Assembly (NCBI GenBank): GCA_041660605.1
Contig: JBAZWB010000001.1
Location: 201,295 to 265,294 of the forward strand
Source of the DNA: Patescibacteria group bacterium
GTDB taxonomy: Bacteria; Patescibacteriota; Patescibacteriia; UBA10025; JAHIVO01
Length of the DNA: 64,000 nucleotides
Direction: 5' to 3'
Program-made: the position numbers and the translations under genes
Part shown: piece by piece, positions 36,299-56,793 of the stretch
Position numbering within the stretch: the stretch's first letter is position 1
Layout: each line of letters opens with the position of its first letter
The notes under the pieces: model-generated
The model's database searches: none
Told to the model about the DNA's origin: nothing
Seen by the model: the letters and a program-made list of their open reading frames with translations, nothing else

Positions 36299-36601
36299 AT
36301 GCCAAGGAAAAATGGGCAAGGTCCTGTCTGGGGCGGCGGCCCGGGTGCTGGTTGGGGCGCTGGTCCGTGTGGAGCTGGTAGAGGCGCGCGCGGCGGGTTG
36401 GGTAGGGGTTTCGGACGGGGCAAAGGCTGCGGCCTGGGCTGGGGCTTCATACCTGGCCGTATGTATGACGGCTATAACTACGGTTACCAGCTAAGCAAAG
36501 ACGAGGAGCTGAAAATGATGGAAGATGAGGAAGCGGCATTAAAAGAAGAATTGGAGGCTTTGCAAAAAGCCAAACAACAGCTGCAATCTGTGAAAAAATA
36601 A
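36299..36601 (+). CDS. Gly/Arg-rich small protein with a C-terminal coiled coil, DUF5320-like
   Basis: 'MPRKNGQGPVWGGGPGAGWG...GRGFGRGKGCGLGWG' then 'EELKMMEDEEAALKEELEALQK'. Confidence 0.4.
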   Translation: MPRKNGQGPVWGGGPGAGWGAGPCGAGRGARGGLGRGFGRGKGCGLGWGFIPGRMYDGYNYGYQLSKDEELKMMEDEEAALKEELEALQKAKQQLQSVKK

Positions 36602-40852: not shown

Positions 40853-41842
40853 ATGAAACAATTGAGAGCAAAAATATTAAATATCAGAGCGATCAGCCCG
40901 ACGGCTGTTGAAATATCCATGGTCAGGGCCAATGGACGGAATTTTTTCGGATTCCTGCCCGGCCAGTACGCGACTCTGAGCTTTCCCGGGCACGACCGGC
41001 TGCGCGGGGAAAGGTCTTTTTCCATTACCAGCGCGCCTGAGGATCTCTCGACCTTGAGATTCGGCATCCGCATCTACGGGAGATATACCAGAGCCCTGCT
41101 AAATCTCCGGCCAGGCGACCCGGCTTTGGTAGCCGGCCCTTTCGGGCAATTCACTTTTGTCCCGGCCCGAGACGAGTCAGCCGTATTTCTCGCCGGCGGC
41201 ATCGGCATCACGCCTTTTCTCAGCATGATCCAGTCAGCTGCCAACCAGCGTTTGCCGAATAAACTTAATCTTTTTTACAGCGTAAAGACGTTGTCTGACG
41301 CTCCATATATCCAGGAACTGCAGGAGCTGGGAAAGATAAATCCTGCTTTACGCACTGTATTTGCGGTGAGCAATGACGAGGTGACCGGTAAGGACGGCAG
41401 TTTTGTGCGCGGGCGGATCAGCCGGGATCTGATCGCGGAAAAACTTGAGGGAGATTATCTCAACCGCACGTATTTCATCTGCGGCCCGCCGCCTTTTATG
41501 AAATCCATGAAAGAAATACTGGGTTCGCTGGGAGTGCCGTCTTTTGAATTAAAAAGCGAGCGCTTCGGCGTCGGTTCGTCCGCTTTTATAGAACGCGGCA
41601 CCCCGGTGCCGAAATATATTTTTGCCGCCTGGGGAGTGACGGCTATGATTCTGCTGGGCGTGGTTATCAGGGTGGAAAGCCTCAGGCGGGCTAATGCCCA
41701 GACCGCTAACACTGTCCCCTCAACACAGGTTAATACCAATGCCAGCCCTTCCATTTCAAACAATCAAAATAGTAACAGTACCAATATCCAGCAGACCTCG
41801 CCCGCGCCGGTCAGGCCTATTCCCCGCACAGCGGTTTCATAA
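40853..41842 (+). CDS. FNR-like FAD/NAD(P)H oxidoreductase with a C-terminal TM helix and an S/N/Q/T-rich tail
   Basis: 'FLPGQYATL', 'RSFSITS' (RxYS), 'GPFGQF', 'LAGGIGITPFLSM' and 'ICGPPPFMKSM'. Confidence 0.75.
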   Translation: MKQLRAKILNIRAISPTAVEISMVRANGRNFFGFLPGQYATLSFPGHDRLRGERSFSITSAPEDLSTLRFGIRIYGRYTRALLNLRPGDPALVAGPFGQFTFVPARDESAVFLAGGIGITPFLSMIQSAANQRLPNKLNLFYSVKTLSDAPYIQELQELGKINPALRTVFAVSNDEVTGKDGSFVRGRISRDLIAEKLEGDYLNRTYFICGPPPFMKSMKEILGSLGVPSFELKSERFGVGSSAFIERGTPVPKYIFAAWGVTAMILLGVVIRVESLRRANAQTANTVPSTQVNTNASPSISNNQNSNSTNIQQTSPAPVRPIPRTAVS

Positions 41843-41859
41843 AAAATTTACTGTCAATT

Positions 41860-42810
41860 ATGCAAGAAAAAATCCAGACTTTTACCGGCAATTTTTTCGC
41901 CTTAAATACCACGATTGAGGGCGGTTTTCGGACTAAACAGGATTTAGCCAAGGATTTGTGGCGGCTGGTCAGCCGGGAGGTTAAAAAATTCGAACAAAGA
42001 TTCAGCCGTTTTCTGCCTGATTCGGAGCTGTCGCGCGTGAACAAAAATGCCGGCAAGAGAGTAAAGGTCAGCCGGGAATTTTTTGATTTGCTCAGAGCCG
42101 CCCAGCGCATCTGGTCGGCCACCAGCGGATTGATCGACCCGACCATCGGCCGCGCGCTGGCAGACGCCGGTTACGACGCCTCATTCGAGCTGCTGGAGAA
42201 AAAAAATCGGGTTAATAGATTGCCAGGCAGCTTCAAAGCTGTTACGCTGGCCGATTTGTCCGTTGATAAATCAGCCAGCACCGTTAAAATGCCGGAAGGC
42301 GTGAGCCTGGATTTCGGCGGCCTGGGAAAAGGCTATCTGCTTGATCAATTAGCCGGGAAGATAGAAAAAAGTACGGAAGATTACTGGTTGTCTCTCGGCG
42401 GCGATCTGATCATCTCCGGCACAGATGAGATGAATCAAGCCTGGCCGGTTAATGTCCAGAATCCGGCCGTGCCTGAACTAGATTTGTTCCAGCTACGGCC
42501 GGTCAGCGGCCGCTGGGGCATAGCCACCTCAGGCACCACGAAAAGACGCGGAGAAAGATCGGGAGTGCCGTGGCATCATATTATTAACCCGCGCACCGGC
42601 CGTCCGGCGGACACAGATTTATGCGCAGTAACGGTTCTGGCCGAGACAGCCCTGGAAGCGGACGCTTTTGCCAAGGTAGTATTGCTGCGCGGATCCCGTG
42701 ACGGCCTGAACTGGGCCAGGCATCAGCACCAGGTGGAGGCCTTAGCCATTACCAATGACGGCAAAGTGAAGGCTACGCAGCGCATGAAATCATATATTAT
42801 ACGTTTATGA
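41860..42810 (+). CDS. apbE: FAD:protein FMN transferase (ApbE)
   Basis: 'SRFLPDSELSRVN', 'IATSGTTKRRGE' and 'HHIINPRTG'. Confidence 0.85.
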   Translation: MQEKIQTFTGNFFALNTTIEGGFRTKQDLAKDLWRLVSREVKKFEQRFSRFLPDSELSRVNKNAGKRVKVSREFFDLLRAAQRIWSATSGLIDPTIGRALADAGYDASFELLEKKNRVNRLPGSFKAVTLADLSVDKSASTVKMPEGVSLDFGGLGKGYLLDQLAGKIEKSTEDYWLSLGGDLIISGTDEMNQAWPVNVQNPAVPELDLFQLRPVSGRWGIATSGTTKRRGERSGVPWHHIINPRTGRPADTDLCAVTVLAETALEADAFAKVVLLRGSRDGLNWARHQHQVEALAITNDGKVKATQRMKSYIIRL

Positions 42811-43580
42811 AATTAAAGATATTATTATTTGCAGGTTTATTGGCTTTGCTCTTGCCTTTGCATGCGCACGCGGCCTCCGTGCTGGCGGAAGAATCAGAGC
42901 GTGATGATTTTGAGCAGGAAGATGTTCAAGCGCCAATTCAGGCTGTTCCCCTGAATACGCAGAATAATGCCGTTAACGCACCCGGCAGTACAGTGAATTC
43001 AAATACCGCACCGGCGCCTGCCATATCCAGTTCCTTTCCCTGGGCTTGGACAGTTACGCGTTCTGCCGGTATCGCCTCATATTTATTACTGGGAATTTTA
43101 ACCATCTCCGGCATTTTATTGAGCACGGGTTTATTTTTCCGTATTTTTGATCCGGCTACCGCCTGGTCGATACATCGGGCGATCGCTTCGGTTCTGCTGG
43201 TGTCCGTTTTGCTTCATGTCGGCGCCCTGCTCTTTGACCATTTTATCGGCCTGCATATTTTGGACGTACTAGTGCCTTTTGTCTCTTCATACCGCCCGGC
43301 GCTGGTGGCTCTGGGCATAGCCGGTTTTTACTTATTATTGTTATTGCTGATCACCTCGCTATACACCATGACTAAGCATCCACGTTTTTGGAGGATTGTG
43401 CATTATTCGGGTTTTATAATGTTTTCTGCGATTTTTGTGCATGGCCTGCTGATCGGCACTGACATGAAGCTTGCCTGGATAAAAGCAATTTACTGGATTA
43501 TGGCTGTTCTGGTCTTGGCCGCCGTTATTTACCGTCTGTGGTGGAGACATCGCGGACCCCAGCTGGATATTGGCAATTAA
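42807..43580 (+). CDS. Ferric-reductase-domain (FRD; NOX/MsrQ-like) di-heme transmembrane protein
   Basis: His pairs in TM helices, 'HVGALLFDHFIGLH' and 'HYSGFIMFSAIFVHG' (H-x13-H); 4-bp overlap with apbE. Confidence 0.5.
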   Translation: MKLKILLFAGLLALLLPLHAHAASVLAEESERDDFEQEDVQAPIQAVPLNTQNNAVNAPGSTVNSNTAPAPAISSSFPWAWTVTRSAGIASYLLLGILTISGILLSTGLFFRIFDPATAWSIHRAIASVLLVSVLLHVGALLFDHFIGLHILDVLVPFVSSYRPALVALGIAGFYLLLLLLITSLYTMTKHPRFWRIVHYSGFIMFSAIFVHGLLIGTDMKLAWIKAIYWIMAVLVLAAVIYRLWWRHRGPQLDIGN

Positions 43581-44586: not shown

Positions 44587-47500
44587 ATGAAAAAAACACT
44601 AATAATTGGCGTGGCCGCGGCAGTTGTGATTGCCGGCGGTATTTTTGCGGTGGTCTTCATCAATCAACCGGAGAAAACTCCGGTAAAAAACAACCGGACT
44701 GTGCCGGTTATTTATACCCAGGCAGACAATCAATTCACGCTGAAAGCGGACAAAGCCGATGCCCTGGGCGTGGAATCGGACAGCACTTTTACTCTCTCCA
44801 CCAAAGAGCCGGTGAGCGCAGATTTGATCAAGGGCAACCTGGCAGTTGAGCCGAAAATCGCCTATAAGGTGCAGTCGTCTGACAGCAATACTTTCAGCAT
44901 CACTCCTGAATCCGCGCTGGAAAAAAACACTGTTTATACTTTTTCCGTCGTGGCGCAAGCAGAAGGCGCGGCTACCAAGCGGGAATACCAGTGGGCTTAT
45001 CAGATTAAGGATAATTTTAAAATTACCGGCACCCTGCCCAGGGACAAAACCGCCAACATCCCTCAGAATACCGGGATTGAAATAATTTTTTCCCACGAAA
45101 ATTACACTGACTTTGAGAATTTCATTACTATCACCCCGCAAGTCAGCGGCAGATTTGAACAGCACCGCAAGACTTTAGCCTTCGTCCCGGATAGCCTGGC
45201 ACCCGGCACGCTTTATACTGTTTTGGTGAAGAAAGGCCTGCCTTTGTCCGGTAGCAGCGATACTCTGGCGGAGGACTACAGTTTTCAGTTTGAAACCGAC
45301 ACTCAGCAGGCTCCCCAGGGAGGCCTGTCGTTCAGCAAAGATTTTTTTGAATATCCCTCCAATGAAGCGCCGATCCTGACAATGCAGCAATATAGCGATA
45401 ATCCGGGTGAGGTGCAGGTGGAAGCTTTTAAATATCCAACCTTTGAAGCTTTTGCTGAAGCCGTGAAAAGCCTGGACGCAGTGCCGTATTGGGCTTATTA
45501 TGCCAGGCGCAACAGTTCTTATTCCACTGACGGTTTGATTTCAGCAGTTACCTTCCAGGCTGAGGTAAAGCAGTCGGATTACCAGCGATACATCGAATTT
45601 CCTGAACAGCTGAGCACTGGCCAATATTTAATCCAGATTACCAGGGATAATAATACCGCTCAGGCTTTTCTGCAGGTGGGCAATCTGACGGCCAGCTATC
45701 AGGGCGGCAAAGAAAATTCATTCATCTGGGCGCACAGCCTGGACACCCAGAAACCAGCGTCGGGTACGACTGTTTCCTTTTCGCACGATAGACAGTTCAC
45801 TGCCAAGACAGACAAGGAAGGCCTGGCGGAATTTGCCAGTCCCGCGTTAACTACTGACGAGAGCGAAGGCCTGACCAGCACTTATTATTTCACACTTGAT
45901 AATAACGGCGAAAAATTATTACTGCCGGTGGTAAATCACTATGGCACGTGGATGAGTTCAACTGCGTCAGAAGACTATTGGTCTTATTTATATACGAACC
46001 GGACGTTGTATTCGCCGACGGACAGCATTAAATTCTGGGGCGTTATTAAATCCCGCAGCGATAAACAGGAAGCCCAGGAGCTGCAGGTAAGGTTAGTCAG
46101 CTACGGGTATTATTATAATGAAGATTCAAATCCGATCATTGACCAGAAAACTCTGCCAGTTTCTTCATTTGGCACGTTTACCGGATCATTCGACTATGCC
46201 AACCTGAACCCTGGCGGTTATTCGATACAGGTTTTGGCCGGTGGAGAGGAAATCCTGAGCACCTGGGTGGATGTCGCCACCTACACCAAGCCGCCGTACA
46301 AGATTGAAGTAACGACGGAGAAGAAGGCGATTTTTGAAGGAGAGGATGCGGTCTTCAATATTAAATCAGCGTTTTTTGACGGCACTCCGGTGGCTAATCT
46401 GGACCTGGAATATACCGGCGCGCTCGGCAGCGGACAGGTAAAAACCGACGTTAACGGCCAGGCGCAGGTAACCTTGCAGTCAAGCTACACTAACGCCGGT
46501 TATTATCCGAATTATGCATATTTTTCCATTCATCCGGTCAAATCGGAGATCTCGGAAATAAGCACGGACGCGAACATTTACACTTTTGGGCCGCACTACG
46601 ACCTGCAATCCACCATAGACAATGACGGGCTGGTGTCCGGCAGCGTGCATCAGGTTGACCTGGCTTCCATCAATAAGGAAGGCGGAGACTTCAAATGGGA
46701 ATATCAGGGCGATCCGGTAGCCAATTTGAATCTGGGAATAAAAATTTACCGCGAGTATTACACCAAAACAGAAACCGGAACTTTTTATGATTTTATCAAT
46801 AAGAAAACCAATAAGACCTATAACTACGATTTCCATTCTGATTTTACCAAGGAGTCCACGGCTGTCAGTGATAAGGATGGCAAGTTCACTTACGATTTTA
46901 AAGCGGAGACTAATGATAACTATAAAATTGAAATTACCGCTACGGACGCTGAGGGGCGCCAGGCGAAGAGTTACGCGTATTATTACCAGGGACCGCGATT
47001 CTACGGCTATAATTCGGGGTATGATAATTATTATCTTATAACTTCGCAGGTAGCGGAGACGGAGAACCAGCCCGTGTATCAGCCGGGGCAGGATATTACC
47101 CTGAATTTCAACAAAAACGAAGAGCTTCTCGCCGGTGCAGACCAGAAAAATTTCGTTTATTTCAAGGCGCAGAAAAATTTCTTCGACATAGAAGTTTCCA
47201 AAAATCCGACAATAGAATTCAAATATAAGGATTCCTACGCGCCAAATATTTACGCCTATGGAATTTATTTTGACGGCCGCAGCTATCACCTGACCGATTC
47301 CCTGAACATGAAATACGACACCAGCCTGAAGAAATTAAATATTGACATTCAGCAGGATAAAAAGTTCTACCGTCCGGGCGAAAAGGTGACCATGAATTTA
47401 AATGTGACTGATAAAGATAAAAGACCAGTGCGGGCGGAAGTCAACATTTCCGCCATTGATGAAGCTTTGGCCGCCATTCAATGGGAAAATCCCATCAACA

Positions 47501-49845
47501 TATTGAGCACGCTTTACCAGAATCTGCCGACGCCGCTGGCTTTCGTATACCAAAGCTATGATAAAGCCCTGACTGCCAATGCGGAGGGCGGCGGCTGTTT
47601 CACCGGTGAGACGGAAATTCTCATGTCAGACGGCAGTAAAAAGAACATTGCAGATATTAAAATCGGCGATGAAGTGCTGACCAGGCGTTCGCCGCAGAGC
47701 GATGAGATGGCCGCGGCCAAAGTCACAAATAAGCTGGTGCACATGGTTGATTCTTATCTGACGATCAACGGGTTTCTCAATGTCACCCCGGAGCATATAG
47801 TTTATTTGAATGGTGATTGGCAGACAATCGGAACGGCGAAAATCGGCGATGAGCTCATGGATTATTCGGGCAATAAAATTGTCATTGAATCCATTGTCGC
47901 TCATCATCTGCCCACTGCCGTTTATAATTTGAAAATCCAGAATTACCATACTTTCATCGCCGACGGCATCTATGTGCACAATGAAAAGGGCGGCGGCCGG
48001 GAAAATTTCCAGGATATCGCTTATTTCGGCTCTGCGGAAACCGGCAGCGACGGCCAGGCTACTGTCCAATTCACCTTGCCGGATAACGTTACTTCCTGGC
48101 AGACCGCCGTTCACGCTTTAACCAAGGATCTGCAGGCAGACGCAACCCAGACAGCGGTCATCTCCACTTTGCCTTTCTTCGTTGATGTTTCCGCTTCTGC
48201 CAATTATCTGGTAGGCGATAAGCCGACCGTTAAATTAAGGAGCTTCGGCACAGGATTAAAAACCGGAGAAAATGTCATATATGACATAACTTACCCAGGC
48301 TTCAGCGAGGAGACCCAGACATTGCAGGGCGGAGCCGCGGATCCGGTGGAATTTACGCTTCCGGATTTTGCCGAAGGCGACCATTCGATCAAGGTCAAAG
48401 CCCACCAGGGCAATTCGGAAGATACGGTTACCAAAAAAATTATGTACCGCACTTCCAATATCACCACGGGGGTGACACGGCATTATCTGCTAGCGCCGCA
48501 GGTGCAGATAGAAGGCAGCAGCGCCGGCCGCACTAATCTGACGTTTGTCAGCGAGGACAGGGGGCAATATTATAATTACCTTAAATATTTGTCCTTCGCC
48601 GGCAGCGACAGGGTTGACCAGAAAGTCGCTAATTTTGCTTCCGCAAGTTTATTGAACCAATATTTCGGGGAAAATAACACGGCCGAAGCGATCAACTTCA
48701 CTGATTATCAGGTCGGGGAAGGGGGATTGTCATTACTGCCTTATTCTTCCGCAGATTTATTGTTAACTGCCAAAGCCATGGAAATGGCCGGCGACCAGTT
48801 TGACACCCAATTGGCGAAAAGCTATTTCCGGGGAATTCTGGATAATAAATCCAGCAATATAGATGAAGTCGCTTACGCGCTTTTTGGCCTGGCTAATCTG
48901 CATGAACCGGTACTGACTGACATTAATTTATTAATCGACAATAATGAAGTACCACCGGAGCTGATGCTCTACCTGGCCAGGGCCGTCTCCAACCTGGGCG
49001 CCACCGAATACGCCGCCACTCTGCTACAGCAGGTAATTAACGACCATGGCGTGCAGTCCGATCCTTATCTAAAAATAGATCTGGGCACCACGCAGGATGA
49101 CAATACTGAATACACCTATCAGGCGGCAATTTTGGCAGCGGCGGTTTCATCCGACCAGGCAGGCAAGCTTTTTGACTATGCTCAGGAAAATCCCGCCCGC
49201 GATCAGCTTAATGTTTTAGACGAGCTGGCTTACATTAAAACCAGCCTGCCTCTTTTGACAGACAATAAGGTCAGTTTTTCCTATACTTTGGGAGCTGAAA
49301 CTAAACCCATAGAATTAACCAACAATCAGGCACTGACGGTTTCCGTCACTCCGGAGCAGCTGCAGCAAATAACATTCAGCGCGATTGACGGCCAGGTTGG
49401 CGTGATCGCCTCTTATCAGCAGGCGGCTGATTGGCGTCAGCTGCCAACGGATAATTTAGTATCAGTCAAAAGGGAGTATCTGGTTAACGGCCAGGCCGTC
49501 ACGAAGTTCAATGAAAGCGATATTGTGCAGATAAACCTGACTCCCACTATCGCCGAAAAAGCGCTGGATAATGAATATCAGCTGACTGACTATCTGCCGG
49601 CAGGTCTGAAACTGCTGACCAATATTACTTCGCGCGGATTGGATTATGACCAGCAGCTGGGCTTCCCTTACGAGGTCAACGGTCAGGCGGTTAAATTCTG
49701 GACCGGCAAACCGGCCAAGGCATTCCACTATTACGCGATAGTCGTAGGCAAAGGCCAATATAAGGCTGAACCGGCGGAGATCCAGGGCTTTGTCGCCAAG
49801 GACAGCAGGAATTTCAGCCAGGCACTGGATATCACTATCAATTAA
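44587..49845 (+). CDS. Giant secreted multidomain protein with alpha-2-macroglobulin/MG-domain-like architecture and an embedded Hint (intein-like) domain
   Basis: Signal anchor; repeated beta-rich domains; 'FTLPDNVTSWQ' resembling the A2M 'PDSITTW' motif; helical TED-like C-terminal region with no CxEQ. The Hint domain has blocks 'CFTGETEIL', 'TPEHIVYL', 'VYNLKIQNYHTFIADG' and 'IYVHN'. Confidence 0.55.
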   Translation: MKKTLIIGVAAAVVIAGGIFAVVFINQPEKTPVKNNRTVPVIYTQADNQFTLKADKADALGVESDSTFTLSTKEPVSADLIKGNLAVEPKIAYKVQSSDSNTFSITPESALEKNTVYTFSVVAQAEGAATKREYQWAYQIKDNFKITGTLPRDKTANIPQNTGIEIIFSHENYTDFENFITITPQVSGRFEQHRKTLAFVPDSLAPGTLYTVLVKKGLPLSGSSDTLAEDYSFQFETDTQQAPQGGLSFSKDFFEYPSNEAPILTMQQYSDNPGEVQVEAFKYPTFEAFAEAVKSLDAVPYWAYYARRNSSYSTDGLISAVTFQAEVKQSDYQRYIEFPEQLSTGQYLIQITRDNNTAQAFLQVGNLTASYQGGKENSFIWAHSLDTQKPASGTTVSFSHDRQFTAKTDKEGLAEFASPALTTDESEGLTSTYYFTLDNNGEKLLLPVVNHYGTWMSSTASEDYWSYLYTNRTLYSPTDSIKFWGVIKSRSDKQEAQELQVRLVSYGYYYNEDSNPIIDQKTLPVSSFGTFTGSFDYANLNPGGYSIQVLAGGEEILSTWVDVATYTKPPYKIEVTTEKKAIFEGEDAVFNIKSAFFDGTPVANLDLEYTGALGSGQVKTDVNGQAQVTLQSSYTNAGYYPNYAYFSIHPVKSEISEISTDANIYTFGPHYDLQSTIDNDGLVSGSVHQVDLASINKEGGDFKWEYQGDPVANLNLGIKIYREYYTKTETGTFYDFINKKTNKTYNYDFHSDFTKESTAVSDKDGKFTYDFKAETNDNYKIEITATDAEGRQAKSYAYYYQGPRFYGYNSGYDNYYLITSQVAETENQPVYQPGQDITLNFNKNEELLAGADQKNFVYFKAQKNFFDIEVSKNPTIEFKYKDSYAPNIYAYGIYFDGRSYHLTDSLNMKYDTSLKKLNIDIQQDKKFYRPGEKVTMNLNVTDKDKRPVRAEVNISAIDEALAAIQWENPINILSTLYQNLPTPLAFVYQSYDKALTANAEGGGCFTGETEILMSDGSKKNIADIKIGDEVLTRRSPQSDEMAAAKVTNKLVHMVDSYLTINGFLNVTPEHIVYLNGDWQTIGTAKIGDELMDYSGNKIVIESIVAHHLPTAVYNLKIQNYHTFIADGIYVHNEKGGGRENFQDIAYFGSAETGSDGQATVQFTLPDNVTSWQTAVHALTKDLQADATQTAVISTLPFFVDVSASANYLVGDKPTVKLRSFGTGLKTGENVIYDITYPGFSEETQTLQGGAADPVEFTLPDFAEGDHSIKVKAHQGNSEDTVTKKIMYRTSNITTGVTRHYLLAPQVQIEGSSAGRTNLTFVSEDRGQYYNYLKYLSFAGSDRVDQKVANFASASLLNQYFGENNTAEAINFTDYQVGEGGLSLLPYSSADLLLTAKAMEMAGDQFDTQLAKSYFRGILDNKSSNIDEVAYALFGLANLHEPVLTDINLLIDNNEVPPELMLYLARAVSNLGATEYAATLLQQVINDHGVQSDPYLKIDLGTTQDDNTEYTYQAAILAAAVSSDQAGKLFDYAQENPARDQLNVLDELAYIKTSLPLLTDNKVSFSYTLGAETKPIELTNNQALTVSVTPEQLQQITFSAIDGQVGVIASYQQAADWRQLPTDNLVSVKREYLVNGQAVTKFNESDIVQINLTPTIAEKALDNEYQLTDYLPAGLKLLTNITSRGLDYDQQLGFPYEVNGQAVKFWTGKPAKAFHYYAIVVGKGQYKAEPAEIQGFVAKDSRNFSQALDITIN
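47596..47982 (+). other. Hint/BIL domain (Cys1 to terminal Asn; 129 aa) inside the 44587..49845 protein
   Basis: Intein blocks A, B, F and G are recognisable. It is flanked by GGG on both sides ('AEGGG|C...VHN|EKGGG'); the +1 residue is Glu. Confidence 0.65.
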
Positions 49846-49846
49846 A

Positions 49847-50767
49847 ATGAGAAAGAAATTCTTAATTTACTGCGGCCTTGTTTTTGCTGTCTTCGTGGCC
49901 GGTGCTGTCGGCTGGCATTTTAGCTCGGCAAAAATTAGGATGGATTCTGCAAATGATAATGCCCCGGCTTTAAAAGGCGCTGTAACTTTGGAAGTGAAAT
50001 ACTTCTATCAGCACCAGTTTGATTTATCCGTTCAAAAAGCGGAGAAAATGGAAAATAATTTTCCTGCGGCACCCATTCGCGGAGGCATTTTTCCCCATGA
50101 CATTACCCAGGGGCAGTTTATCGCGCATTTCTTCCAGGCGCTGGCCAAACAAAAACCTGAGCGCATTATAATTATCGGGCCCAACCACTTTGAGCTTAGC
50201 GGCAGCAATGTTATCACCACGCGCGCCAATTGGCAGACCGAATACGGTTTAGTCAAATCCGACCAGATGGCAGTCGCAAGGCTGTTGGAAAAGAGCGCTA
50301 TTACGCAAAACGACGATGTTGCCGCCAACGAGCATTCAATGGCGGCGATCATGCCTTTTGTTTCTTATTACTTGTCGGAGGCCACGGTTGTACCGATTAT
50401 ACTGAAGTCAGAAATCAATTTACAGGATATAAACGTCCTTTCAGACTTGATAAACGAAATTTCTGATAGCAAAACGGTGGTTGTCGCCTCGGTTGATTTT
50501 TCCCATTATCTTTCCGCCGCCCAGGCAGAACGAAATGACCAGGAAACGCTGGAAATGCTGCGGACTCTGGATTATAAAAAAATAATGTCATTCGGCCCCA
50601 GATTCAATGACTACGTTGATTCTCCGCCATCCATCGCTCTGCTGCTATATTGGCTGTCAGAAAATAATATAAAAGGATTCAGCCTGATAAATCACGCGAA
50701 TTCAGGAATATTGTCCGGCAATACGGCTGCCCCGACCACCAGCTATTTTGAGGCAGTTTATTTTTAA
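49847..50767 (+). CDS. MEMO1-family protein (AmmeMemoRadiSam system protein B-like) with an N-terminal TM anchor
   Basis: 'IIIGPNHF', 'NEHSMAAIMPFVSYY' and 'SVDFSHY' match Memo motifs. Confidence 0.5.
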   Translation: MRKKFLIYCGLVFAVFVAGAVGWHFSSAKIRMDSANDNAPALKGAVTLEVKYFYQHQFDLSVQKAEKMENNFPAAPIRGGIFPHDITQGQFIAHFFQALAKQKPERIIIIGPNHFELSGSNVITTRANWQTEYGLVKSDQMAVARLLEKSAITQNDDVAANEHSMAAIMPFVSYYLSEATVVPIILKSEINLQDINVLSDLINEISDSKTVVVASVDFSHYLSAAQAERNDQETLEMLRTLDYKKIMSFGPRFNDYVDSPPSIALLLYWLSENNIKGFSLINHANSGILSGNTAAPTTSYFEAVYF

Positions 50768-55115: not shown

Positions 55116-55676
55116 TTGAACATGCTTCAAGAAGGGGAAATCCAAAAATTGGTTGCCCGGGCGCAGTCAGGCCGGTCTGACAGCATATCAGGGATATATG
55201 AGGTTTTTAAAGACCGGATTTATCGCTTTTTTTTATTCCGTTCGGAAAACAGGGAAACAGCGGAAGATCTGACCCAGAGCGTATTTCTTGAAATGATTCG
55301 CTCCCTCCCACGATATAAGGAACAGAGCAACGCGAAATTTTCTACCTGGCTTTTCCAGATCGCCAGATTCAGATTGATAGATTATTACCGCAAAGCCAGG
55401 AAAAAGGTTAATTTAGACGACCTGGAAGGCGAAAGGCACCCCTCCCTGACAACAGAGCCAGAGGAAGTGGCAATAGATACCCGTTATGAAGCAGCGAGAA
55501 AGATTTTGAAAGAATTACCGGAAAAATACCAAACCGTTATTCATCTGACGATTATTGAGGAATTCAGCCTGGCCGAAACTGCAAAAATAATGTCAATCAC
55601 TATAATCAATGTCAGGGTCCTGAAATTCCGGGCGTTAAAAAAGATTCGTTTAATAATGGAACAAGATGAAAAATAA
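55116..55676 (+). CDS. ECF (sigma-24-type) RNA polymerase sigma factor
   Basis: Region 2 'DLTQSVFLEMI...WLFQIARFRLIDYYRKARK' and a region 4 HTH 'FSLAETAKIMSITI'. Confidence 0.8.
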   Translation: MNMLQEGEIQKLVARAQSGRSDSISGIYEVFKDRIYRFFLFRSENRETAEDLTQSVFLEMIRSLPRYKEQSNAKFSTWLFQIARFRLIDYYRKARKKVNLDDLEGERHPSLTTEPEEVAIDTRYEAARKILKELPEKYQTVIHLTIIEEFSLAETAKIMSITIINVRVLKFRALKKIRLIMEQDEK

Positions 55677-56793
55677 CATTACCAATGAGGAAATAAAAAA
55701 AATATTAGAGTCAGTGAACAATATCCGCCTGGACCAGGCGCCTGCTCAGCGTATAAAAGGTGTTTTGCTGAGCCAGTTTGAAAATCTGGAAAATCAGGGG
55801 GATCTAAAAAATAATCACTTTAACGAAAATAGAAAAGTTTCAATATTTAATTCATTAATGTTAAAACCCATGATACCAATTTTAATCGCTCTTATCATTT
55901 TTGCCGGAACGACCGGTACAGTCGTGGCTGCAGAAAACTCAAAACCCGGAGATGCATTATTCGGAGTTGAAAGGGCCTGGGAGCAGACACAGCTTAATTT
56001 TTCCCTGAGTGATGAGGCTAAGGCGGAGCGCTGGCTGAAAATCGCCCAGGAGAGAGAGCAGGAGCAAAAAGCTCTCTTGATCAGTAATCAAACTGATGAA
56101 GCTAATACCGCCGAAGGTATTGCCAGTAATGCGCTGCAGAATGCCCAGGAAGTAATTGCCCGCGTCAAGGCAAAGCATGAAGAGAACGGCCGTGAGCAGG
56201 CCTCGGAGTCATTGAATAAGGTTGAGCATAAACTGCAGGAACTAAGCGACCGTTTTGAAGAAAGGAAGCGCGAGCAGACCGAGCGGCGGCTGGAGAATGA
56301 GTTTGGCAGCACCGATCTGGAGGTAGAAGTAGAGGATGGACAAGCACGGATTAATTTGGAAGCGGGAGGCAAAAAATATGAATACTCCCTTGAAACTTCC
56401 GACACCCAGGAAATTGTTGACTCAATACAAGAAAAAACAGGCATCAGCACCGAAGATGTCAGGACGCTCATAAAAATTGACAACCATAGTAACAGCGATA
56501 ACAGCAGCGATAATGCAGCCAATGATGAGAGCAATACAAACCAGTCACCTGATTCTGTTGATGGCAGCCAGGGCGACGACAGTGCGGATGACAGCAGCCA
56601 GAATATAAATGACGATTCCTCGGGTCAGGATCAGCCGGATTCTGAAAACACCAACAGCAATGAAAATATAAATGATGATCAAGGCGATAATGGGACGGAA
56701 GATAGCGCTAATGAAAACGAGAACAGAAATACCAACCAGGGACAGCAACAGAACAGCGAGGATGAGGTAACTGAAGGACAAAGCAGAGATTAA
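55666..56793 (+). CDS. Putative membrane anti-sigma factor with a coiled-coil ectodomain and a D/S/N-rich acidic tail
   Basis: Overlaps the sigma gene by 11 nt; single TM 'IPILIALIIFAGTTGTVVA'. Confidence 0.4.
   Translation: MKNNITNEEIKKILESVNNIRLDQAPAQRIKGVLLSQFENLENQGDLKNNHFNENRKVSIFNSLMLKPMIPILIALIIFAGTTGTVVAAENSKPGDALFGVERAWEQTQLNFSLSDEAKAERWLKIAQEREQEQKALLISNQTDEANTAEGIASNALQNAQEVIARVKAKHEENGREQASESLNKVEHKLQELSDRFEERKREQTERRLENEFGSTDLEVEVEDGQARINLEAGGKKYEYSLETSDTQEIVDSIQEKTGISTEDVRTLIKIDNHSNSDNSSDNAANDESNTNQSPDSVDGSQGDDSADDSSQNINDDSSGQDQPDSENTNSNENINDDQGDNGTEDSANENENRNTNQGQQQNSEDEVTEGQSRD

Follow-up and report, generated by a model that had tools for sequence, protein, structure and literature searches.

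How is a protein of the alpha-2-macroglobulin (A2M) superfamily activated when a predicted self-processing domain, rather than a protease target, stands in its bait region? The question is raised by a gene at 44587..49845 of a 64,000-nucleotide stretch of DNA (the window; all coordinates below refer to it and to its forward strand) from a Patescibacteria group bacterium (contig JBAZWB010000001.1, positions 201,295 to 265,294). The gene encodes a 1752-aa A2M-like protein with an inserted Hint (intein-like) domain. In A2M itself, in complement C3/C4/C5 and in the insect TEPs, the bait or the ANA domain is cut by an outside protease. By analogy with the complement ANA domain, and with a rough probability of 0.55, we propose that the Hint would act here as a built-in, protease-independent cleavage module, that is, as a self-excising ANA equivalent which would free an alpha'NT-like R-x-x-F segment lying just behind it.

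An A2M-superfamily protein with a folded domain in its bait region

The open reading frame and its translation, the Pfam matches to A2M-family domains and the structural matches returned by Foldseek identify the 1752-aa product as a membrane-anchored, extracytoplasmic member of the A2M superfamily. An AlphaFold2 model of aa 553-1752, computed from an alignment of 43 homologues (mean predicted local distance difference test score, pLDDT, 85.3; predicted template modelling score, pTM, 0.67), shows the domain order bait-region domain (BRD), MG7, CUB, helical TED-like domain, CUB and C-terminal MG. Its best matches in the PDB are native Escherichia coli ECAM (5A42, E 1e-46) and the Salmonella A2M (4U48, E 6e-45), followed by A2ML1, C3/C4/C5, TEP1 and CD109, and all 50 of the 50 matches listed are A2M, C3, C5, TEP or CD109 structures. 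A hidden Markov model (HMM) built for the family and aligned to ECAM, as taken from strain MG1655, matches the latter with an E-value of 1.6e-39.

The Hint domain spans aa 1004-1132 (129 aa, 47596..47982). It begins with CFTGETEIL (aa 1004-1012, 47596..47622) and ends with IYVHN (aa 1128-1132, 47968..47982), is preceded by AEGGG and followed by EKGGG, and thus has Glu1133 as its +1 residue. Three independent lines place it at the A2M bait position. First, in the order of Pfam domains it follows the A2M bait-region domain (A2M_BRD, PF07703, 52.2 bits; aa 827-962, 47065..47472), which is beta-rich and modelled with high pLDDT, and precedes MG7 (Pfam 'A2M', PF00207, 30.6 bits; aa 1148-1216, 48028..48234). 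Second, in the family HMM alignment the insertion point falls at ECAM G949/D950, inside bait residues 923-963; in the ECAM structure R923-L942 are disordered after cleavage, and R956, G958 and N963 are still termed 'cleaved bait region' (PMC4498604). Third, the model has five segments with pLDDT <50, two of which flank the Hint as its linkers (aa 985-1003 and 1133-1136), while the rest are the first ten residues and the loops at aa 802-811 and 823-826. The Hint itself is well folded in the model (block pLDDT 78-93) and sits on an ECAM-like body.

Comparison with homologues that have no Hint reveals a clean insertion, the Hint-less sequence reading ...GAE(K/Q)GG-EGG..R.F.D and the Hint-bearing one ...AEGGG/C...VHN/EKGGGR.F.D, where the slashes mark the ends of the domain. 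The disordered pre-Hint linker (aa 985-1003, ending in NAEGGG; 47539..47595) aligns with the ECAM bait up to G949 and, as far as its sequence tells, is a leftover bait-like segment that ends in a putative N-terminal scissile junction, Gly1003/Cys1004. Members of the A2M superfamily have as their cleavable moiety an unstructured bait or, in the case of the complement factors, the folded ANA domain (PMC9352918); here the position of this moiety, between LNK/BRD and alpha'NT-MG6/7, is taken up by the disordered linkers together with the Hint.

On the far side of the insertion, alignments define a C-terminal junction and alpha'NT-like segment (E1133 KGGG R1138 EN F1141 Q D1143; 47983..48027). Its motif R1138-x-x-F1141-x-D1143 starts six residues past the terminal Asn of the Hint and is invariant or nearly so. 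In the A2M superfamily, R732 and F735 of the alpha'NT are conserved, and the conformational trigger passes C-terminally through this segment (PMC9352918). The sequence LPDNVTSWQ (aa 1164-1172, 48076..48102) lies farther on, within MG7, and its pattern LPDN.T(S/T)W is kept family-wide.

The preliminary description of this stretch, made from its letters, had already drawn an A2M-like layout with a Hint at the bait site and an A2M-type motif in LPDNVTSWQ, and all of this is borne out by the A2M/MG Pfam models that match the flanking domains, by the Foldseek ranking and by the linkers of the model. The ends that it had given for the Hint (47596..47982), the GGG linkers on both sides and the Glu at +1 are exact.

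The remaining parts of the protein fit the same scheme. An N-terminal signal anchor (MKKTLIIGVAAAVVIAGGIFAVVFINQ; 44587..44667), assigned by reading the sequence directly, has its hydrophobic stretch at aa 5-25, with neither a lipobox cysteine nor a cytoplasmic extension, the protein beginning directly at the transmembrane (TM) helix. It is followed by N-terminal Ig/MG-like domains (45016..46254) matched by Pfam Big_5 (aa 144-237), bMG3 (aa 367-425) and MG2 (aa 467-556). At the other end, a C-terminal MG domain (MG8 or CTMG-like, about aa 1625-1751; 49459..49839) forms a beta domain in the model; in the family HMM alignment it corresponds to the C-terminus of ECAM (E 2.3e-16), and Pfam bMG10 is matched there by some homologues. 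An identical protein, from a Patescibacteria metagenome-assembled genome (MAG), carries the NCBI pipeline name 'polymorphic toxin-type HINT domain-containing protein' (P0001; labels of this kind denote proteins, and those such as L002 denote genome loci).

Type and conservation of the Hint domain

By every sequence criterion the Hint is of the A-type bacterial intein-like (BIL) kind. It matches Pfam PT-HINT with 54.7 bits (gathering cut-off 27.7 bits) and, over aa 1112-1132, NCBIfam intein_Cterm; the Pfam models Vint, Hint and Hom_end_hint begin at aa 1003/1004, with the Hint and Vint matches weak and partial. The best solved relative is the Clostridium thermocellum BIL domain 2LWY (BIL4, E 1.6e-9), with the Hints of ADP-ribosyltransferase toxins (6TMM, 6Y75) ranked next and RecA and other mini-inteins, more weakly, after them. 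All class-1 splicing blocks are present, namely Cys1004 in block A, T1067-x-x-H1070 (VTPEH) in block B, VYN (1112-1114) and H1121-T1122 in block F and H1131-N1132, within VHN, in block G. Homing endonuclease blocks are absent from the 129-aa domain, which has no room for them.

Conservation was assessed in 117 full-length A2M-Hint homologues. C1, F2, the block-A Thr, T..H of block B, V-x-N and T..A of block F and the closing V-H-N are invariant or nearly so among them. Position -1 is Gly in 116 of the 117, as at the Hedgehog G/CF site, and position -2 is Gly in 110. At +1 they have D, E, Q, A, N, S or G; Cys or Thr never occurs, and Ser is found in five. BIL domains without a +1 nucleophile yield chiefly cleaved products (PMC7664689, PMC7765530), mostly N- and C-cleaved ones, and can be made to splice efficiently by one mutation (PMC7664689), while those of A-type have a conserved C-terminal His-Asn and are located in non-conserved secreted proteins (PMC7765530). 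Self-cleavage is the chemistry to expect of a domain with these residues, and its earlier assignment as BIL-type, rather than as a splicing intein, extends to the whole set.

The Hint is better conserved than the protein that carries it, with a median identity to the query of 47% vs 30% for the scaffold, and it remains at about 45% where the scaffold is down to 18%. The overall correlation between the two identities is weak (Spearman 0.21) because Hint identity saturates near 45%; among close pairs it rises with that of the scaffold. These comparisons favour vertical inheritance of the Hint with its scaffold over an ancient transfer, which is the less probable course. Recent horizontal transfer of the Hint between A2M genes was considered and rejected, since no pair with distant scaffolds (<20%) has near-identical Hints, the maximum being 61%.

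That a 129-aa domain with no endonuclease, in a dispensable flexible loop, is nevertheless widely retained argues for function rather than parasitism. The possibility that it is a degenerate intein remnant, which the preliminary description had named as a way in which its reading could fail, is contradicted by catalytic residues that stay invariant over deep divergence. In addition, Cys1004 is the sole cysteine among the 1752 residues, and 12 of the 19 closest homologues likewise have a single Cys, which is what one would expect of a free catalytic thiol that survives outside the cell.

A further conserved position is the lysine at +2 (aa 1134, 47986..47988), found in 109 of the 117 A2M-Hint proteins and absent from the corresponding linker place of the aligned Hint-less homologues. 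It may belong to the Hint unit, act as a general base or supply an amine nucleophile for an isopeptide-type ligation.

The closest Hint relatives outside A2Ms (P0103-P0141, e.g. P0106, P0112, P0133, P0238) include proteins with 2-12 tandem Hint matches. In P0106 the Hints are arranged head-to-tail and joined solely by ...VHN-KG-CF..., and the tandem-Hint proteins have Lys at +1. Other close Hints occur at the C-terminus of RHS-repeat proteins, of proteins rich in carbohydrate-binding modules and of shufflon/pilin-like proteins.

Distribution of the A2M-Hint family

The fusion was found to be an old and conserved family. A word-indexed protein search recovered 41 Hint-bearing homologues, down to about 30% identity, and those with a name come from Patescibacteria, Parcubacteria and Magasanikbacteria MAGs. 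The Hint-less homologues are about 130 aa shorter, and the named ones belong to Firmicutes (Tepidanaerobacteraceae, Peptococcaceae, Dehalobacter, Vallitalea and Thermoclostridium). With just the Hint as query, an exhaustive phmmer search yielded 6264 matches at E <= 0.001; among the best 150 representatives of 50%-identity clusters, 84-87 belong to the A2M family and carry the Hint at this same position.

In a survey of one genome per species, at least 156 genomes encode a relative of the A2M-Hint protein. Within the best 80 of these loci, the named lineages are nearly all Patescibacteria (candidate phyla radiation) and comprise Parcu-, Kerfeld-, Nomura-, Uhr-, Magasanik-, Falkow- and Portnoybacteria as well as Peregrini-, Peri-, Gracili-, Collier-, Levy-, Dojka- and Saccharibacteria, the last label being carried by L024, L047 and L072. 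The preliminary description had called for a survey of Patescibacteria for the same fusion, and this is its outcome. About 20 MAGs among the best 80 loci are labelled otherwise, as Gammaproteobacteria, Pseudomonadales, Flavobacteriales, Nanoarchaeia or WOR-1 (they include L003, L008, L009, L015, L017, L025, L032, L037 and L038). The orthologues in these MAGs reach 60% identity to the query over a 249-aa Hint region, and some loci, such as L003, share the gene that follows the A2M-Hint gene in the window (see below); the labels of these MAGs are probably unreliable.

Proposed self-cleavage

The architecture, the insertion site, how well the catalytic residues are conserved, where the family occurs and the synteny are shown by the data; that cleavage occurs, which products would dominate and how the cut would affect the scaffold we infer. 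Once the protein has been exported and has folded, Cys1004 would undergo an N-S acyl shift at Gly1003/Cys1004, the resulting thioester being resolved mainly through hydrolysis, and cyclisation of Asn1132 would break the HN/E bond (N1132/E1133). The predicted products are a membrane-anchored N-terminal chain of aa 1-1003, with the MG domains and the BRD, a free 14-kDa Hint, and a C-terminal chain of aa 1133-1752 that would hold the alpha'NT-like R-x-x-F, MG7, CUB, the TED-like domain and MG8. The new N-terminus would lie five residues before R-x-x-F, and its release would trigger or license an A2M-type conformational change with no foreign protease, by a logic that parallels the removal of ANA/C3a from complement C3 by furin and convertase.

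The TED-like domain of the window protein has no thioester, so the expected output would be conformational or structural (two-chain maturation, trapping or signalling) and not covalent tagging. In those relatives that do have the thioester motif, CxEQ, cleavage by the Hint would additionally arm the thioester, again without a foreign protease.

Several points weigh against this proposal. In the 84 cluster representatives the Hint was located by a regular expression that requires Cys and HN, so that the conservation of Cys1 and of HN is partly by construction; no representative among the 84 departs from the Cys...HN pattern, and 41 homologues picked by alignment, not by pattern, have the same residues. 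In the CxEQ-bearing relatives, constitutive cleavage would cause the thioester to discharge shortly after export, and self-cleavage would make sense in them only if it were slow or conditional, or if self-firing were its purpose. The 19-residue pre-Hint linker could serve as an ordinary protease bait, with the Hint doing something else. Finally, A-type BILs can ligate their flanks at low yield, and a spliced single chain is a possible product.

This last point can be carried further. If the Hint were excised and its flanks religated by aminolysis, a single-chain A2M with a short GGG-EKGGG bait would result, and the Hint would be a tolerated or conditionally regulating passenger. Besides the full set of class-1 intein blocks, such protein splicing would account for a predicted junction, AEGGG-EKGGGR, that is close to the Hint-less linker AE(K/Q)GG-EGG..R, and 2LWY figures, by a title cited in PMC7664689, as a BIL domain used in ligation without nucleophilic side chains. 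However, selection for splicing should favour a nucleophile at +1, for which one mutation suffices (PMC7664689), whereas the family has Ser there in five of 117 proteins and never Cys or Thr. Cleaved products predominate in BILs (PMC7664689), and an endonuclease-less passenger in a dispensable loop should be lost; instead, it is retained and more conserved than its host. Splicing is on these grounds unlikely. A true, canonical splicing intein was rejected, given the +1 Glu, the lack of an endonuclease and the Gly-rich, disordered linker in which the domain sits.

Gene neighbourhood and a possible role in signalling

Gene order was compared in 81 loci, namely the best 80 loci from the survey of at least 156 genomes and the window. 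In 42 of the 81, among them L002, L011, L012 and L015-L020, the A2M-Hint start codon is abutted or overlapped by a preceding extracytoplasmic function (ECF) sigma-70 gene, whose end is no more than a few bp away. Exactly the A2M-Hint proteins of these loci have a basic cytoplasmic extension of 43-114 aa before the TM helix. The extensions are short, at least three groups of unlike sequence can be told apart among them, and Pfam recognised no anti-sigma domain in them. This arrangement suggests an anti-sigma or sensor role for the A2M-Hint proteins encoded behind a sigma gene, as in the known autoproteolytic anti-sigma factors RsgI (PMC10328401) and FecR/FoxR, the latter cleaved via an N-O acyl shift (PMC12036975, PMC9249621).

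The A2M-Hint gene of the window has no adjacent sigma gene and its product has no extension. A related ECF sigma-70 factor is nevertheless encoded at 55116..55676 (Pfam Sigma70_r2 and r4), and the sigma encoded beside A2M-Hint in L002 agrees with it at 80 of 178 residues. Its gene overlaps the start of the next one (55666..56793), which encodes a 375-aa membrane protein with a cytoplasmic N-terminus, a TM helix, a DUF5667 match in Pfam and an acidic, Asn/Asp/Ser-rich tail. The N-terminus of this protein weakly resembles the L002 extension (z = 6.2, with 0/300 shuffles reaching the score), and by this resemblance it is probably a separate anti-sigma-like protein. These observations suggest that the anti-sigma module was split from the A2M-Hint gene in the lineage of the window, perhaps by fission of an ancestral sigma / anti-sigma(A2M-Hint) pair.

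It could be argued from this that the family is chiefly an ECF-sigma regulator with an A2M-like ectodomain. Autoproteolysis by the Hint would then be a priming 'site-1' cut, and the loss or capture of the C-terminal chain would lead to intramembrane proteolysis and release of sigma, the window copy being a derivative without the anti-sigma part. The strict association of sigma gene and extension, the Pfam-confirmed sigma and the precedents just cited speak for it, as does the presence in the window of a related sigma with a separate partner resembling the L002 extension. Against it stand an extension without a match to any known anti-sigma domain, a window copy that has neither extension nor adjacent sigma gene, and the lack of coupling in about half of the loci. 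As the principal function of the family it is rather improbable, and it is in any case compatible with the self-cleavage proposal and not exclusive of it.

Downstream, and 2 bp after the A2M stop codon, lies a gene for a Memo-like protein with an N-terminal membrane/signal segment (49847..50767; Pfam Memo, PF01875, E 1e-33). In 46 of the 73 loci with enough downstream DNA, the window and three thioester-bearing loci among them, a Memo-like gene follows directly on the same strand, mostly with a gap of 0-7 bp. Some of the Memo-like copies, about 600 aa long, carry a fused PGA_cap domain (PF09587). To our knowledge, an extracytoplasmic Memo partnered with an A2M has not been described.

The neighbours of the A2M-Hint gene in the window are ApbE, a small membrane protein, the Memo-like protein and YdjM. 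Three consecutive genes upstream of it (40853..43580) resemble an extracytoplasmic flavin/redox module. They encode an oxidoreductase that would bind FAD/NAD and has a membrane segment at its C-terminus, the flavin transferase ApbE and a membrane protein resembling cytochrome b561. Farther upstream, a 100-aa open reading frame (36299..36601) is extremely Gly-rich, with GxG/GRG/GWG repeats, and continues into a coiled-coil-like acidic tail.

The Hint and the missing thioester

In place of the thioester domain of A2Ms, the window protein has a helical TED-like domain (aa 1323-1556, 48553..49254), assigned from the secondary structure of the AlphaFold2 model; the Pfam TED model does not match the protein. 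SDRVDQ (aa 1340-1345, 48604..48621) takes the place of YGCxEQ in the alignment with ECAM YGCLEQ and with the thioester-bearing Hint-A2Ms, and no CxEQ motif occurs anywhere in the 1752 aa. The preliminary description was right about the helical C-terminus and the absence of CxEQ. It had also supposed that the protein may make up for this absence with the thioester formed by the N-S acyl shift of the Hint, and here the wider family speaks against it.

On one side, the Hint-less Firmicutes sister proteins have no CxEQ either, which indicates that its loss is independent of the Hint. On the other, a second, divergent A2M subfamily, marked by DTAYWNP...LPDNLTTW, carries the same Hint at the same site. 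Its members score 200-430 bits with the family HMM, vs 978-1909 for full-length members of the query's subfamily, and at least 24 representatives retain the canonical YP(Y/F)GC(V/T/I)EQT, aligned exactly with ECAM YPYGCLEQT. These thioester-bearing Hint-A2Ms (including P0129, P0152, P0190, P0224 and P0247) have 2-4 cysteines in total each, and those of three genome loci (L069, L075 and L078) exactly two. Their phylum rests on three MAG loci labelled Gammaproteobacteria, labels that seem unreliable; P0136/P0253, from Candidatus Parcubacteria, is a CxEQ-less member. Since the Hint is present with or without CxEQ, it goes with the bait or cleavable position and not with the absence of the thioester.

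The same comparison bears on a Hedgehog-like reaction, in which the Gly1003-Cys1004 thioester would be attacked by a nucleophile of a target, linking the N-terminal fragment to it covalently. In this reaction, which would stand in for the TED thioester, the partner might be a lysine of a protease, an amine of the cell wall or a group on the host surface. The Hint chemistry of Hedgehog is established (PMC7664689, PMC7765530), the G/CF junction is conserved, Cys1004 is the only cysteine of a protein without CxEQ, and Patescibacteria are presented in PMC10633639 as epibionts that need adhesion. The idea is distinctly improbable all the same: with Hint-less sisters that have no CxEQ and Hint-bearing representatives that keep it, the Hint is no substitute for the TED thioester; MG7 follows within 15 residues, leaving no sterol-recognition-like or adduct-recruiting region after the Hint; and the strict terminal HN points to a C-terminal cleavage that pure transfer does not need.

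Release of a C-terminal part in the style of polymorphic toxins, or a Hint that is an inactive structural remnant, is very improbable, and both were rejected: PT-HINT is the best Pfam model, close Hints do occur in RHS and other secreted multi-domain proteins and the solved relatives include the toxin Hints 6TMM and 6Y75, but the 620 residues past the Hint are MG7, CUB, TED-like and MG8, homologous over their length to Hint-less A2Ms and ECAM and thus not a variable toxin, the downstream gene is a conserved Memo-like gene and not an immunity gene, and invariance of the catalytic residues over deep divergence speaks against a remnant.

A tentative reading, possible but with the balance against it, would join self-cleavage with the neighbourhood and the thioester data. 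The A2M-Hint proteins would be self-firing, the Hint replacing the activating protease. Thioester-bearing relatives would thereby expose their TED thioester unaided and attach covalently to the nearest surface, be it their own wall or a host cell; in sigma-coupled relatives the cut would be the site-1 event of a new class of anti-sigma factors with an A2M ectodomain; and the Memo-like protein, as an extracytoplasmic partner, would control the reaction or make use of it.

Implications

Two known modules appear to have been joined at a mechanistically telling position and conserved across a bacterial radiation, in a combination that is apparently undescribed. Full-text literature searches turned up no account of an A2M that contains a Hint, intein or BIL domain, and the only names are automatic ones in databases, in agreement with the earlier impression that the fusion was new. 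A2M and Hint are not mentioned in the Cell 2023 genetics paper, and one Patescibacteria paper cites the SaA2M structure merely within a list of adhesion-type domains.

If the proposal of self-cleavage is true, a protein with its own scissor at the bait would represent a new activation logic for the A2M/complement superfamily, and a natural experiment on the way in which a cut sets off the conformational change, which is a live question (PMC9352918). Among BIL-type domains it would further be an uncommon example of one that is fixed at a single site of a conserved scaffold and kept under strong purifying selection across a bacterial radiation, which would point to a domesticated function and not parasitism or toxin release. 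For the ultrasmall Patescibacteria, whose host attachment and sensing are still poorly understood, it is a widespread, large, surface-exposed protein. The conserved set of ECF sigma, A2M-Hint and Memo-like genes allows specific genetic tests, and for protein engineering the fusion suggests a route toward protease-independent, self-triggering traps of the A2M type.

Comparison with known systems

The window protein is a member of the A2M superfamily, and it is not a type I bacterial A2M. With the type I proteins (E. coli ECAM/YfhM and Salmonella SaA2M) it shares the order of multiple MG domains, BRD, MG7, CUB, TED and C-terminal MG, and it is likewise membrane-anchored and extracytoplasmic, at about 13% identity to ECAM. 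It differs from them in having no CxEQ, in a signal-anchor helix instead of a lipoprotein anchor, and in a bait taken up by a folded 129-aa Hint. No pbpC gene is found beside it in the window, whereas E. coli has yfhM-pbpC; a Memo-like gene and, in other loci, an ECF sigma gene stand there instead. Bacterial A2Ms come as two types, of which type II has no thioester, as outlined in PMC5764988, and the window protein shares the absence of CxEQ with this MagD/YfaS class. Pfam gave no Mag-like neighbours that would point to a Mag-type operon, in a scan that included no search aimed at MagA-F/YfaA-T homologues.

Among Hint domains, the nearest equivalent is the A-type BIL (C. thermocellum BIL4, 2LWY), which has the same Cys1, TxxH, VYN...HT and terminal HN, no +1 nucleophile and no endonuclease. 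Like the hosts of BIL and PT-HINT domains, the host of the window Hint is a secreted, non-essential protein. Described BIL/PT-HINTs, however, directly precede C-terminal toxin domains or lie in regions that are hypervariable (PMC7765530), unlike the window Hint, which occupies one fixed, homologous site of a conserved scaffold and is inherited across a bacterial radiation. The score for a pretoxin Hint (PF07591) is well above the cut-off (54.7 vs 27.7), and neither a toxin domain nor an immunity gene accompanies it. Class 1 mini-inteins share the fold and blocks A, B, F and G; compared with them, the window Hint and its relatives mostly have no Cys, Ser or Thr at +1 (Ser in 5/117 of the family), the host is exported, and the insertion is at no conserved essential site. 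The Hedgehog Hog domain differs in its sterol- or adduct-recognition region after the Hint, an additional region that is not present in the window protein because MG7 begins 15 residues after the Hint.

The autoproteolytic anti-sigma factors RsgI and FecR/FoxR are single-pass membrane proteins encoded right after an ECF sigma gene, as are the A2M-Hint proteins in 42 of the 81 related loci, and their extracytoplasmic part cleaves itself in a reaction of the acyl-shift type (PMC10328401, PMC12036975); their autoproteolytic modules and ectodomains are unrelated to those of A2M-Hint. The window protein has neither the cytoplasmic sigma-binding domain nor the sigma adjacency of ECF anti-sigma factors.

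A further parallel can be drawn to the ANA domain of complement C3/C4/C5, which, as the Hint here, is a small folded domain at the bait position. The two folds are unrelated, and no thioester would be exposed afterwards in the window protein. ANA is cut on its N-terminal side at maturation, and a cut on its C-terminal side frees the alpha'NT (R..F) and triggers the change (PMC9352918); an R-x-x-F directly after the inserted domain is common to both. Complement makes its cuts by furin and convertase, whereas in the Hint protein they would come from the inserted domain itself.

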